Origin: an uncultured Nitrospiraceae bacterium
GTDB lineage: Bacteria > Nitrospirota > Thermodesulfovibrionia > Thermodesulfovibrionales > Dissulfurispiraceae
Direction of reading: 5' to 3'
NCBI GenBank assembly: GCA_963705105.1
Contig: CAVPIW010000005.1
Coordinates: forward strand, 576,001 to 640,000
DNA: 64,000 nucleotides
In this document: piece after piece, positions 49,756 to 55,623 of the stretch
How positions within the stretch are numbered: position 1 is the first letter of the stretch
Layout: each line of letters starts with the position of its first letter
Position numbers and translations under genes: made by a program
The notes under the pieces: model-generated
The model's input: the letters and a program-made list of their open reading frames with translations, nothing else
What the model was told of the DNA's origin: nothing
Database searches by the model: none

Positions 49756-49781
49756 CAGGGAGGGGTGGAGACCCCTCCCTG
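49756..49781. terminator. Hairpin between convergent genes
   Basis: CAGGGAGGGGT-GGAG-ACCCCTCCCTG. Confidence 0.75.
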
Positions 49782-49787
49782 GTTGTT

Positions 49788-51500
49788 TTAGAAGCGCACG
49801 TCGAAGGAGAAGTAGAGGTCCCAGGCGTGCTTGAGCGGGGCGAAGAGCTGCGTCTTCGTCACGTCGTTGGCGCTCAGATCGCCGATCTTGAAGGACTGGC
49901 CGACCCAGTTGCCGCTGCCCGTGTAGTCGAAGTCGTAGTACTGCCACCCCAGCCTGAAGAAGGCGAGACCCCTCTTCGAGATGGGAATGTTGAAGAGTTC
50001 CTGGATGGCATAGATCTCATAGACCTTGCCTCTCGCGCCGAGCTTGGACGTCCAGATGTCGTCTCCCGCCGGAACGAAACCGATCCAGTTGCCCGATCCG
50101 TAGTTGAATTCGAGGCCGATCTTCGTCCTCGTCGGCTTGATGTCATACCTGCCGCCGACATAGAACATATGGCCCGTATGGCTCTCCTCGTCCACTCCCG
50201 GCGTGGTCGGGTCGTCGTTGAAGCCGAGTCCGAAACCGCCGTTGAGCACCTGGTCCGGAATGCCGTCACCGTTGATATCGACGAGGGCAAAAGGCAACGA
50301 GAAGAGGTTGCCGTTCGGGTGGGTCTTGCTCAGGGCGGCAGCACCGAAGAGATGGAGATCTCCCGGGCCGAGGTCCTTGATCTTGCCCATGACGAGACCG
50401 CCGAGCCAGTCGATGTCGCCCAGGTTCGTCGTCACCGGCGTGGTCACGTTGATGAAGCTGCCCGTGGTTTGGGGCGGATTCTGGAGGAATCCCGGATCGA
50501 CCTTCGTGACGAACCCGTCCGGCGGGTTTGTAAAGATTTCAAATCCGCGCTGCCATTGAAGGGTTACGAAAAGATTCTCCGTTTCGTACGGAGTAATATT
50601 AATACCGAAGAAATTCACGTCTTCAAGGTTCGAACTGAACCCGTTATCGAATCCCCGGCCCGCTCAAAGCTTCGCATAGGCGCCGGGAAGACCCGGAATC
50701 TCGGGCTGAACCCCGAAAGACGCCCCGTCAAAGGCGTAATCCACGAGGAAGCAGGGAATGCCTGCCGTGCCCTCCTTCTCCTCGTTCATCCGCAGGTGTG
50801 AAGGCGGGCCGTTCGTCGAAGGCCTCCTTCCGACGGAGAGCCAGATGGGCTGATCGGCGATGTTGGCCCAGGTGACAATGGCCCTGTCCACCCTGACCTC
50901 GCCGTCCGTCGGCACATGTCCTATCGTGCCGTCAAAGGGCCCGAAGGCCCTGTCGGCAAAGAACTGGCCGTCCGTGGGCTGTGACGTCTGGTGGCCCCAG
51001 ATTTTGTACATCAGGAGCCTTCCCTTGAAGTTGATGTCCTCCGTCGGCTTCGCCTTGATGTCGAGCCTCAGGCGGTTGGTGAGCAGTGAGTCGTTCTCGG
51101 CGTCGAAGGCCTGCTGAGGCCTGGCCAGGAATGTCGTCACTGCGCCCGGAACGGGGAAGTTGGGGGCGCGGATCGCCGTCCCGAGGGCCGGAGCGAACTG
51201 GTCATACTGAACGTAGTCCACAGTCCTGCCCTGGAGAATGTCGTGACGCGACCTGAAGTCACCGCCGATCTCGAGCCAGGACGGCCAGCCTTTCGGCTCG
51301 TCGGCCTTTTTCTCGACCTTGGTGATCCTCTCTTCCTTGACCGTCTCCTGCTTCTGCATCTCCTGCATCTGCTGTTTGAGTTTCTCCAATTCCCTGGAGA
51401 GATCATCGATCTTCTTCATCAGATCTGCCTGATCGACAGCGAGCGCAGGGAGCGGCAGCAGCAGGGAGAAGGCAAGGAGCACCGCTGCAAGAGTGCGCAT
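49788..51500 (-). CDS. DUF3373-family outer-membrane protein with one in-frame TGA (50664-50666); candidate selenoprotein
   Basis: ORFs 50664-51500 and 49788-50618 are in the same frame and joined by ...AYAKL-TGA-AGRGFDNGFSSNLEDVNFF. Signal peptide, coiled coil, GGDFRSR, GRRPST.GPP, VDYAFDG and C-terminal Phe. Confidence 0.8.
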
Positions 51501-51611
51501 ACAAACCTCCTTTCTCTATTCAGGGATGATCAGCGGTCATCCCCAAAAAAATTTGGTCACCGCCAATGGCGGTGGTTCGAAACGTCTTATGTACAGAAAA
51601 ATGTAAAGTTT

Positions 51612-51626
51612 GCAAATGCCGTGCCC
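51612..51626 (-). promoter_or_regulatory. Sigma54 (-24/-12) promoter for the DUF3373 gene
   Basis: Minus strand GGGCACG-GCAT-TTGC. Confidence 0.7.
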
Positions 51627-51781: not shown

Positions 51782-53656
51782 TCAGACTGGCAAGCCGAGC
51801 CCTTTCCTCTTCTCGTTGATGTGGTTGATCATGAGGTCGGCCGCCTTGTCCGGATCCGGCTCCACGGCGAAGCAGGCCCCGAAGATGTCGCTGAGTCCCT
51901 TCGTCGCAAGCTCCGTCACCTTGCTGCTGCCCAGGATAGGCGGCATGACGCCGAGAATGGTGAAAATGCCGCTCGCCATGGCATAGAAGGCGATCGTCGC
52001 CGCCTTTTCCGAATACCACTCCGGCGCCGCGCCGGCAAGGGGAAGCTTGTCGATGTCGACGCCGATCGCGTTTGCGAGGGCGCAGGCGATGACGATGATC
52101 CTCGAGTTGTCGACGCAGGACCCCACATGGAGACTCGGGGGGATACCGAGAAGAGAACAGACCTCTTTCAGTCCCGGGCCGGCCAGATCCTTCGCCTCCG
52201 GCACCTGGAGGCCCGCCTTGCCCGCTGCGACGTTCGCGCATCCCGTCGTCAGCACGAGGACGTCGTTGGCGATCAGTTTCCTGATGAGATTGACGTGGCC
52301 GTAATCCTGCCTGATCTTCGGGTTGTTGCACCCGACGACGCCGGCGGCGCCCCTGATTTTCCCTGCCTTGATAGCGTCGATGAGAGGAGTGAGACTGCCG
52401 CCGAGGGCGCCGACGATGGCCTCGACGGAGAAGCCTGTCATGCTTTTTACCGGCTTCACGGGGATGTTCACCCGAGCCGGGTTTCTCCGGCTGAAGTTCT
52501 CCACGGCCTCCCTGACGATGCGGGATGCCTGTTCCTTTGCGTTGTCGGGAGTGAACTCGACGTGCTCCATGAAGGGGAATTGGGCCTTGTCGGAGGTCGA
52601 ATAGAGTTTCGTGTGGTAACATTGGGCGACGTGGCCGAGGGACGGCATGATGCATTGGTAATCGACGATGATCGCCTCCGCCGCACCCGTCACCAGGACG
52701 AGCTCCGTCATGAGATGGTTTCCCGCCATGGGCACCTGTTTGCGCATCATCAGCTCGTTGCCGGTGCAGCACAACCCTGTAAGGTTGATCCCCGAGGCGC
52801 CCTTCGACCGGGCGAACTCCTTCAGCTCCTTGTCTTCCACGGCGAGGTATATCATCTCTGAAACGAGGGGGTTGTGACCGTGGACGAGGATATTGACCGC
52901 ATCTTCCCTGAGCACCCCCAGGTTCATCTCGGAGAAGCCCGGTGACGGCGTCCCGAAGATGATATCCGACACCTCCGTGCCGATCATGGAGCCGCCGTAT
53001 CCGTCGGCAAGGCTCGTGCGCACGGCATGGAGCAGAAGTGAGGCATAGTTGTTGTCGACGCCCATGTGTGTCCGGTGCATCGCCTCCGACGTCTCACGGT
53101 CGATGCCGCGCGGCATGACCCGCAGTTTTTCCCAGAGCGCCCTTCTCTGCTGCGGAGCCCGGTTGACGAAGGTGATCTGCTTCTTCTTCGTCCCGAAATC
53201 TTCCATCATCGTTTCGGCCAGTTCTTTCGCGATCTCCCCAACGGGGCGTCCGTCCGTGGCGACGCCGTATTCCCCGGCGATGCTCTTCAGTTTGTCCGGG
53301 TCCCTGATCTCGTAGCCCGGGGCTTCTCCCATGCCGACCCTGTGCATCACCTCGACGAGGTCTCTCCCGTGGTCCGAATGAGAGGCTGAGCCTGCGGCGA
53401 TCATCCGCGTCAGGTTCCGGGCGACGATGATATGGGCGTCAGCCCCGCAGATCCCCATCTGCGGTCCTTCGCCGAAGGGGTCGATCCGGCAGGGTCCCAT
53501 GACGCAGTTGCGGCAGGAGACGCCGAGTTCACAGTAGCCGCAGTGAGGCTGCTGCTTCTCCAAACGGTCCCAGACGGTCTCGACGCCGTCCGCTTCAGCC
53601 TTTCTGATCATCTGTATCGCGTCGTCACATATGGAGTATTTCCTGAAATCCCGCAT
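51782..53656 (-). CDS. cooS: Anaerobic Ni,Fe carbon monoxide dehydrogenase catalytic subunit
   Basis: C..C..G.SCRNC.MGPC, ICGA, HSDH, HGHNP, CCTG.E, DYQC, GCNN, TGC, GSCVD, EKA. Confidence 0.97.
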   Translation of the reverse strand: MRDFRKYSICDDAIQMIRKAEADGVETVWDRLEKQQPHCGYCELGVSCRNCVMGPCRIDPFGEGPQMGICGADAHIIVARNLTRMIAAGSASHSDHGRDLVEVMHRVGMGEAPGYEIRDPDKLKSIAGEYGVATDGRPVGEIAKELAETMMEDFGTKKKQITFVNRAPQQRRALWEKLRVMPRGIDRETSEAMHRTHMGVDNNYASLLLHAVRTSLADGYGGSMIGTEVSDIIFGTPSPGFSEMNLGVLREDAVNILVHGHNPLVSEMIYLAVEDKELKEFARSKGASGINLTGLCCTGNELMMRKQVPMAGNHLMTELVLVTGAAEAIIVDYQCIMPSLGHVAQCYHTKLYSTSDKAQFPFMEHVEFTPDNAKEQASRIVREAVENFSRRNPARVNIPVKPVKSMTGFSVEAIVGALGGSLTPLIDAIKAGKIRGAAGVVGCNNPKIRQDYGHVNLIRKLIANDVLVLTTGCANVAAGKAGLQVPEAKDLAGPGLKEVCSLLGIPPSLHVGSCVDNSRIIVIACALANAIGVDIDKLPLAGAAPEWYSEKAATIAFYAMASGIFTILGVMPPILGSSKVTELATKGLSDIFGACFAVEPDPDKAADLMINHINEKRKGLGLPV

Positions 53657-53658
53657 CC

Positions 53659-54256
53659 CTATCTCCTCCTGAGCTCTTCCATGTGTGCCTGATAGGCCCT
53701 GAGCGCTGAAAAACCGGTCACGGGCGCCTCTTTCTCCCGGATCCCCAGGTAGACTATGTCAGCCATCCGGTCCGTTTCCCTCTTCATAAAGACATTCGAC
53801 ATCCTCGAACAGGAGGGCGCCGGCCTTGCAGACCTCCACACAGGCGGGAATATGCCCCGTCTTCTGTCTCAGGATGCATTGGTCGCACTTATGGGCGGCC
53901 GGCCGTTTGACGGCAGGTGAAAGATGGAACCGCACAACCCCGAAGGGACAGGCCATGGCGCACATGCCGCAGTTGATGCACCGTTCGGGATTGATGAGGA
54001 CCGCTTCAGTCACGTCTTCCCGGTAGATGGCTGCAGACGGGCAGGACATCTCGCAGGGCGCCGGCTTGCAGTGCCTGCATTTGTTCGGAAAGGATTCCCC
54101 CCTGCTGCTCAGGCCGATGTGGATCCGGGGTTTCGACAGGACCGGCTCATAGATTGCGGTATAGGGCGAGCGCGAGGACGAGTGCGCCACAGCGCAGGCG
54201 AACCTGCACTGGAGGCAACCGACGCAGCGCTCAGGTCTGACAATGACCGTTTTCAT
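53659..54256 (-). CDS. cooF: CooF-like 4Fe-4S dicluster protein (annotated frame stops at 53759; probable frameshift near 53797)
   Basis: CVGCLQCRFAC, CRHC..APC...CP, CINCGMCAMACPFG, KCDQC...PACVEVC; AAGGAGG RBS. Confidence 0.9.
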
Positions 54257-54275
54257 CAGTTCCTCCTTCGGTGGA

Positions 54276-54420
54276 ACGAGGATTGGGCATGATTTCTTCG
54301 CAAAATAAACTACCTCTTCTCTTATGTCTATCAGCCTCATAAACCAATAATAAACAATCATACTCGCAATCAGCGAGGCTCTGAGGCGTTTTGCCCCGCC
54401 TATTCATCCAACGACGGGGT
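54276..54420. repeat. Degenerate modular element (ACGAGGAT module + delta arm + outer end)
   Basis: ACGAGGATTGGGCATGATTTCTTCGC; CAATAATAAACAATCATACTCGCAATCAGCGAGGCTCTGAGGCGTTTTGCCCCGCC. Confidence 0.75.
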
Positions 54421-55623
54421 AAACAGATCTGCCGGCGTTACATCGCCGTCCACGATCGCCCGGGGAGACACTCGAAGGGGCCGGCCTTTTCTGATAAGGT
54501 TCAGATACGGGCCCGCTTCTTCCGTGTTGTTGTAAAAGGCCAGTCCCACGGGAATACCGTCCCGCAGGGCAAGCTTCCTGAGCTGGTTTCGCCCCCGGAT
54601 ATACCGTTCGACCGTCGTGACCCCCTTGCCCCGGAGGATTCCCCCTGTCACGAGGTGGAGACCCGGCAGTTTCAGGCTGTTCACGGCCATGCTTCCCCGG
54701 TAGGGAGAAGGGATGCCCGCCATGTTCAGCGCGGCATAATATCCCTGTTCCGTCGCCACCGGCCAGATTGCATTGACCCACGGAACGCCACGGACGAAAT
54801 CGATGTTCTCACAGCAATCGCCTGCAGCGTAATGATCTTTGATCGACGTTTCAAGATGCTCGTTCGTTCTGATCCCGAGATCGATGTCCACGCCGGCCCG
54901 TCGCGCCAGTCCTGCCCGCGGTCGCACCCCCTTGCCGACGACGATGACATCGGCATCCAGAACGGTTCCCGATTTCAGGGCGACCCTTGTGCAGTCCCGT
55001 CCCGCCTTCACGGAGGCGACGTCCTCGCCGGTGCATATGTCGACGCCCATGCCCCGCAGGTCCCGCTCCACGAGACGGGCGACCTGTTCGTCCACGTTGA
55101 GGGAAAGGATGTGCCCCGACGAAACGACGAGGGTCGGCCTGATTCCCCGTTGGACGAAACCGCAGGCGGTCTTGATGCCCACGAAGCCCCCACCCACGAC
55201 GACAGCGCTCCTGTCAAGAAACCGGTCTATCATGCTGGCGTCATGAAGATATCTCAAATTGAAACAGCGGTTTTCCTCCGTCACATAATCGGGCTTGATG
55301 GGGGAGGCGCCGGTGGCGAATAGGAGTTTGTCGTATGAAAGGCGCTCCCCGCCTGAAAGCACGAGGGTCGTATCCTTCACATGCACTTCCTCGACACGTT
55401 TGCCGAGCAGAAAAGTGATGCACGAGGCATATGACGAGGGGTCCTTCAGGATCATCGTCTCCCTGCGAAATTCCCGCGCAAAGGCATATGTCAGCATGAT
55501 CCTGCTGTAGGGGAGGCAGTCTTCCTCGGAGATGACGGTGACCTTCAGGTCAGGGGAAAGGGCGACGAGGGTGTCGAGGCAGGACAGACCGGCGGCGCTT
55601 GCACCGATTATGGCAATGTGCAT
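54400..55623 (-). CDS. FAD/NAD(P)-dependent oxidoreductase (FNOR/NirB-like) of the CODH cluster
   Basis: IIGASAAG, PYSR, YDKLLFATG, VVGGGFVG, YAAGD, W..A.EQG..AA.NMAG. Confidence 0.92.
   Translation of the reverse strand: MHIAIIGASAAGLSCLDTLVALSPDLKVTVISEEDCLPYSRIMLTYAFAREFRRETMILKDPSSYASCITFLLGKRVEEVHVKDTTLVLSGGERLSYDKLLFATGASPIKPDYVTEENRCFNLRYLHDASMIDRFLDRSAVVVGGGFVGIKTACGFVQRGIRPTLVVSSGHILSLNVDEQVARLVERDLRGMGVDICTGEDVASVKAGRDCTRVALKSGTVLDADVIVVGKGVRPRAGLARRAGVDIDLGIRTNEHLETSIKDHYAAGDCCENIDFVRGVPWVNAIWPVATEQGYYAALNMAGIPSPYRGSMAVNSLKLPGLHLVTGGILRGKGVTTVERYIRGRNQLRKLALRDGIPVGLAFYNNTEEAGPYLNLIRKGRPLRVSPRAIVDGDVTPADLFTPSLDE

Follow-up and report, generated by a model that had tools for sequence, protein, structure and literature searches.

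Omp50 of Campylobacter jejuni, a protein for which kinase activity has been reported, was the only PDB entry recovered at sequence level with the profile of the protein described here (E 1.1e-26, positions 4-438 of 501). Its structures (PDB 10aw and 10dn) display a 16-stranded trimer in which L3 is folded into a narrow pore that is closed by Y204 (PMC13759207). Like Omp50, our protein combines a long N-terminal helix with a beta-barrel, and it also displays a signal-peptide-like start (by eye) and a C-terminal Phe. The columns of our residues 250 and 279 are both occupied by Ala in Omp50, in contrast to our protein, and there is therefore no thiol or selenol chemistry at these places in Omp50. 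The pore-closing Tyr204 has no counterpart here, since the HMMER alignment placed it on Ile248, two residues before Cys250, at a position displaying Val, Ile or Thr in homologues.

A list of 119 prokaryotic selenoprotein families published in 2026 is almost entirely composed of redox enzymes and of metal or sulfur handlers, and just two of its families, GSU2204 and a TonB receptor, are outer-membrane barrels (PMC13188914). GSU2204/OmcL (NF041027), catalogued there as a selenoprotein barrel of the MtrB/PioB type, is a CXXCH-bearing barrel of cytochrome conduits, whereas our protein displays no CXXCH. The TonB-dependent receptor FCYXU (NF049945), predicted in the same source to be an outer-membrane selenoprotein with a Cys partner, carries a CxxU motif; ours is an apparent porin without CxxU, in which the Cys and the predicted Sec are 29 residues apart. 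Our protein matched neither NF041027 nor NF049945. The sequence-only reading that preceded this work knew of no described Sec-containing member of DUF3373 (PF11853), and the domain is indeed absent from Table 1 of the 119-family list, as far as the available part of that article extends (PMC13188914). No Sec was reported in DUF3373 in the accessible parts of the literature mentioning this domain, within a search that mostly lay outside subscription journals. The available main text and supplementary file of the BSepDB paper (PMC13326102) yielded no DUF3373 match, and the part of the deep-Sep article at hand (PMC12013277) mentioned neither DUF3373 nor a porin. A new selenoprotein family, relying on a recoding system that is itself known, is well supported by the computational evidence given here.

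Cys-type DUF3373 proteins of Nitrospirota and other anaerobes were 45-62% identical to ours and shared the strand motif K-x-C-[YF]-G-[KR]-G; they displayed one Cys, at position 279, and Gly, Ala, Ser or Asn at position 250. The clade of our protein differed from them by a stop at 279 (TGA where visible), by Cys250 and Ala280, and by a conserved hairpin.

The window, by which the whole analysed stretch of 64,000 nucleotides is meant, carried the gene on its minus strand at 49788..51500. As previously proposed, translation from 51500 to 49788 gave a single DUF3373 frame of 570 codons with one internal stop, a TGA at codon 279 (50664..50666, minus strand; context AYAKL-*-AGRGF) within barrel strand 275-284. 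With this TGA read as Sec, the product would be an Omp50-like outer-membrane beta-barrel. All accompanying features lay on the minus strand: a Shine-Dalgarno sequence AAGGAGG (51506..51512) five nucleotides ahead of the ATG, a signal-peptide-like N-terminus covering approximately residues 1-21 (51438..51500, judged by eye), and the long helix 24-67 (51300..51431), which resembles the periplasmic three-helix bundle of Omp50. An 11-bp G+C-rich inverted repeat, read from the sequence just past the stop codon and between convergent genes (49756..49781, no strand assigned), looked terminator-like; the terminator scan raised no flag there. The Pfam model of DUF3373 spanned the TGA, with profile positions 2-143 before it and 146-409 after it, and scored 427 bits as one match containing one TGA (profile 2-409), against a gathering cut-off of 26.1. 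NCBIfam held no model matching the protein. According to a profile search, the genome (4.2 Mb, 99% complete) carried just this one DUF3373 gene.

All four members of the 90% cluster of this protein, gathered from Logan, JGI and NCBI/ENA, were 278 residues long and ended at the same Leu, which makes an assembly error unlikely. Contigs from three DNA runs (X1, X2 and X5, of which X1 is perhaps not independent of the assembly) bridged the TGA, and the differences listed for them, beside 191 outside the listing, included no change at 50664-50666, which agrees with a true TGA and is no proof of it. One contig from an RNA run nearly bridged it, with 30 letters on one side; such RNA contigs are no proof of expression. 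TGA279 is in all likelihood read as selenocysteine in a functional porin. Judged from the sequence comparisons below, the product would very probably be a selenium-containing porin whose family is not listed among known selenoproteins.

The column of the TGA had been expected to align with Cys in homologues, and it proved to be a near-invariant Cys. Among tblastn loci, 45 of the 46 non-self ones displayed TGC or TGT at column 279 and one displayed TGA, a few of these loci being one genome taken from two sources. Cys279 was present in 145 out of 149 homologues of alignment A1, of which 139 displayed exactly one Cys in the mature chain, at this very position. After clustering at 50%, 128 of the 150 representatives covered the region and 86 of them carried Cys279; distant, Omp50-like rows mostly displayed Ala, while Ser, Gly or aromatic residues also occurred. 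Retention of a lone Cys across the wide DUF3373 family points to a function, and its replacement by Sec would mark Cys279 as chemically active in a widespread and abundant porin family of anaerobes.

The Sec form was rare. An order-wide search over 317 genomes gave matches in 109 of them, and only two of the 112 matches displayed a stop within the 140-residue query, both being TGA at 279. The second of these genes (genome G013) belonged to another genus, was 58% identical to ours and occurred in a genome with selA and selB; a further lineage with TGA at this column, the lack of which had been named as an argument against recoding, is therefore at hand. This gene also displayed Asn at 250 and a TAG in its N-terminal helix, and because of the additional TAG it may be dead or mis-assembled. 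Its genome holds a distant paralogue as well. selA was present in all three Cys-type genomes tested, and most Sec-using relatives retain Cys at 279. Extension of the search to the phylum (401 genomes, 88 matching) revealed no TGA gene beyond these two; one weak match with stops (E 2.8e-4) was disregarded. Metagenomes scanned with a pattern of the TGA motif gave three matches, all in unrelated sequence, and no further TGA gene.

Protein databases were richer in truncated relatives. The 172 cluster representatives considered, drawn from the best 120 of 180 plus the best 120 of 337 protein matches, included 28 that ended early; seven ended exactly at residue 278 while the remaining ends were scattered. 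Six of these seven clusters (P0003-P0007 and P0017) were 61-68% identical to our protein over residues 130-278 and 61-88% identical within the group, and one truncated cluster had eight members. The stop codon of these six clusters is presumably TGA, as in the two genes seen at DNA level. A second profile search, started from the truncated proteins, added 52 proteins and no new truncated cluster. A search for second halves gave four matches, one of which, P0140, may complete the truncated gene of a relative. In annotations, genes of this kind are wrongly split into two fragments.

Since a single base change turns TGC or TGT into TGA, the gene might have died by such a mutation, or might be split into halves that are made separately. 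The second stop of the G013 copy, the paralogue in that genome and the storage of a second half in databases as an ORF of its own (P0139) would agree with such a fate. It is nevertheless very improbable: the stop occupies the same column in eight lineages that are 61-88% identical, 110 other matches were free of any stop, and both halves were equally conserved. Identity to the G013 gene was 61% before the TGA and 62% after it, and our protein retained 53 of 58 near-invariant positions before the TGA and 62 of 68 after it, so that the downstream decay which the sequence-only reading had named as a sign against its proposal was not observed. Furthermore, long contig pieces of related strains ran through the coding region without a gap, the gene is the sole DUF3373 gene of its genome, and a separate second half would possess no signal peptide.

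The Sec machinery, which had been left to be checked, was present: selA, selB and selD passed curated cut-offs, selD displaying a TGA of its own, and tRNA-Sec (selC) was found with ARAGORN. Some 16 other in-frame TGAs were located at Sec-like motifs of the genome, namely selD and 15 picked by motif among the best 130 of the 232 candidates from a genome-wide read-through scan. When four of these candidates were compared with NCBIfam, two ExtKL/MccSep and one NuoB scored over the cut-off and one was RtcB-like; Sec-type rhodanese and YeeE candidates were found as well. Avoidance of U after UGA (one of 16 candidate Sec codons versus 145 of 623 stops) was too weak to be retained, Ala280 also occurring in Cys-type genes.

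Of 1189 long ORFs, 623 ended in TGA, more than in any other stop, and the genetic code is therefore standard; this stands against a variant code or a suppressor tRNA by which UGA279 would be decoded as Cys or Trp. The genome did contain a second, unusually long tRNA-Cys of 96 nt (C10:176596-176691, minus strand; the normal tRNA-Cys has 74 nt), which we take to be a possible member of the tRNA-Sec-like Cys tRNA class. Its anticodon is GCA, the only UCA tRNA found was tRNA-Sec, and a Cys or Trp reading is scarcely credible.

Several of these loci deserve separate mention. The two ExtKL/MccSep multiheme selenoprotein genes were adjacent (C6:766176 and 767824, plus strand). In NuoB (C5:32940, minus strand), the TGA coincided with the first Cys of a tandem Cys-Cys. 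The Cys of the D-I-N-C-G motif of RtcB binds the catalytic metal of this RNA ligase, and precisely this Cys was replaced by TGA in the RtcB-like gene (C12:322015, plus strand), the 491-codon frame of which was otherwise intact; it is a possible Sec-RtcB. RtcB is absent from the 119-family table in the available part of its source (PMC13188914). An array of 23 tRNA genes (C4:10181-12340) and a 9-kb contig (C3) with five tRNAs and 67% G+C, compared to ~57% for the genome, may represent foreign or mobile sequence within the bin.

A candidate SECIS element was found downstream of the TGA. The published bSECIS model comprises a loop of 3-9 nt with G in its first two positions, a stem of 4-16 bp, a distance of 16-37 nt from the UGA and an MFE of at most -7.5 (PMC13188914). 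The preferred hairpin (50626..50642, minus strand; +22 to +38 after the UGA) displays arms GGGUUC and GAACCU around the loop AGUUC, that is, a loop of 5 nt in which G stands second and U follows, a stem of 6-7 bp and a loop starting 27 nt past the UGA. Its energy was -6.8 in our gene and -7.0 kcal/mol in the G013 gene when bare, and -11.8 and -9.2 kcal/mol, respectively, with the best extension, so that it lies within the ranges of this model once the best extension is counted in its energy. The hairpin previously proposed at +10 to +27 (50637..50654, minus strand), which shares one arm with the preferred one, can be drawn; it is weak (-3.7 kcal/mol, and -1.5 in G013), its loop starts 15 nt after the UGA, and it was rejected as SECIS, being weaker than the +22 to +38 hairpin in both TGA genes.

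Seven codons overlapping the preferred hairpin (285-291; 50628..50648, minus strand) were DNA-identical in the G013 gene, against a background of 37% of same-residue codons. They include two different Ser codons and encode a loop that is variable among Cys homologues, yet their DNA is identical. Such a run had a probability of ~0.001 at a fixed place and, by a loose test, of 0.17 anywhere. This RNA-level conservation rests on two sequences, in which covariation cannot be seen. Other measures were less distinctive: a comparable hairpin occurred in seven of 62 Cys-type genes, and the 45 nt from the UGA were no more stable than shuffled sequences (z 0.06 in our gene, -0.66 in G013). The inner pair of the preferred hairpin had a probability of 0.34 in our gene, where competing folds were near in energy, and of 0.96 in G013. 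Its loop was farther from the UGA than most other candidate SECIS loops in the genome, and Rfam gave nothing near a gathering score over the region. In the proposed mechanism, the single conserved Cys of the family would be replaced by selenocysteine in an Omp50-type outer-membrane channel; SelB would bind the hairpin 22-38 nt past UGA279 and deliver Sec-tRNA, giving a full barrel with C-terminal Phe, whereas translation without Sec insertion would end at residue 278 with half a barrel.

Residue 250 (50751..50753, minus strand) is the Cys that had been suggested as a selenium-sulfur partner. It had been placed 25 residues upstream of the TGA codon and actually lies 29 residues upstream. The tripeptide P-C-F at 249-251 was displayed by all seven truncated clusters, ours included, while Cys250 occurred in only two of 177 rows of Cys279 homologues and in none of 49 further rows. 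This co-occurrence speaks for the suggested partnership. Two loci outside the branch described below, L022 (G052) and L097 (G316), displayed Cys at both 250 and 279 and are possible disulfide versions of the pair.

A quick tree was built from residues 70-278 of 147 out of 187 rows, after removal of near-duplicates (197 columns, column 250 among them). It united all nine stop rows within one branch of 14 rows (SH-aLRT 89), which also included five nested Cys279 rows displaying Gly or Asn at 250. The simplest reading of this pattern would be that Sec and Cys250 were gained together once, with later reversions; several origins of Sec may be considered as well, branch support being below 95 and the rows not being independent.

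The same five nested rows, which suggest reversions, would fit a near-neutral drift from Cys to Sec in a selenium-rich lineage, by which porin synthesis would at most be tied to the supply of selenium. TGA was likewise found at Cys sites of unusual targets (NuoB and RtcB) and in just two of the 112 matches of the order. On the other hand, the stop was kept across clusters 61-88% identical, and Cys250 tracked it, being present in eight of nine stop rows and in none of the five nested Cys rows. Near-neutral drift is disfavoured because of this tracking and, granted Sec, is unlikely.

AlphaFold2, run on alignment A1, gave a model (pLDDT 90) with helix 24-67 followed by a barrel, Foldseek matches were porins, and the predicted fold is that of an Omp50-like porin. 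In this model, residue 279 belongs to strand 275-284 and Cys250 to the long loop 226-257 (the L3 equivalent) after the fifth barrel strand. Column 279 was flanked by invariant Gly259 and Gly281 and belonged to an alternation of invariant Lys277, a hydrophobic residue at 278, Cys279 and an aromatic residue at 280 (Ala280 in our clade). Because this strand alternation puts K277 in, L278 out and Y/A280 out, residue 279 would face the lumen. U279 is predicted to lie beneath the constriction loop that bears Cys250, and from this arrangement both residues would be in contact.

Given Sec, a Cys250-U279 selenenylsulfide acting as tether and redox gate would be the most likely working mode, at somewhat less than an even chance. 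Through this reversible bond, the constriction loop would be fastened to the wall of the barrel, and the pore would be tuned as thiols of the periplasm or arriving (poly)sulfur species open or close the tethered loop. The wider proposal, in which a Nitrospirota clade gained Sec on the barrel wall and the loop Cys together and uses the resulting Se-S-gated channel to respond to polysulfide or periplasmic redox, is put forward tentatively and, taken as a whole, is rather unlikely. Arrival of Cys250 with Sec gives a precise two-residue model with one bond and a measurable conductance. If true, a Se-S-gated porin would be a candidate for the passage by which sulfur species cross the outer membrane of sulfur-respiring anaerobes; Se-S gating would also assign a chemical function to the lone Cys of DUF3373 as a whole.

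That lone Cys was ancestrally without partner (139 of 149 homologues), so that column 279 matters without a disulfide, and U279 might instead be a free selenol, a nucleophile in the lumen that accepts or passes on sulfane sulfur, a selenium species or a soft metal, Cys250 serving as resolving residue or second ligand. The gene content of the genome would suit such a function, with dsrA, the two MccSep/ExtKL selenoproteins and the candidates for a Sec-type rhodanese and YeeE. According to the MccSep paper, as available, it is not known how polysulfide crosses the outer membrane (PMC13510729). In Dissulfuribacter disproportionating thiosulfate, a DUF3373 protein also figured in the top 20 by abundance, in a table row that holds no fold change (PMC13490349, available part); any major porin would be highly abundant, however. 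A rough motif search placed a TlpA/ResA-like periplasmic gene after the porin, in the same orientation, in 10 out of 28 loci, but this neighbour was absent from both TGA genomes and no sulfur gene adjoined ours. The Ala, Ser, Gly or aromatic residues of distant members at the column likewise weigh against a free selenol, which is possible, given Sec, and on the unlikely side.

The surroundings of the gene were compared among homologues. Multiheme cytochromes occurred near the porin in six of 28 loci; like the TlpA/ResA-like gene, they were absent beside the porin in both TGA genomes. Past the TlpA-like gene of many Cys-type loci, a small ORF without Pfam match was observed (L041:8284-8658, L049:8317-8691, L051:8190-8546 and L045:8260-8703); in the two cases read, it was lipoprotein-like with two further Cys. 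Upstream of our gene and on the same strand lie genes for a FAD oxidoreductase, a 4Fe-4S protein and CODH (cooS), at 51782..55623 (minus strand). The claim that the gene follows a CODH operon holds insofar as cooS is directly upstream; the link was rejected as a conserved one, none of 60 neighbour ORFs from 13 homologue loci displaying it. The G013 gene (L008, C10) directly adjoins a transketolase-ftsE-ftsX-envC-ctpA cluster, and ours lies ~4 kb from the same cluster.

The sigma54 promoter proposed earlier corresponds to a -24/-12-like site, GGGCACGGCATTTGC, with one mismatch (51612..51626, minus strand), 112-126 nt upstream of the gene. The site is present, and the five such matches in the window, versus 2.97 expected, are not significant alone and remain at chance level. 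Across the family, sigma54-like sites preceded nine of 58 genes, ours included, versus none of 58 on the reverse strand. The leader between this site and the ATG (51495-51602, minus strand) displayed no Rfam match; it can form two hairpins (z -2.27, with 4 of 200 shuffles as stable), which are possibly involved in regulation of the porin.
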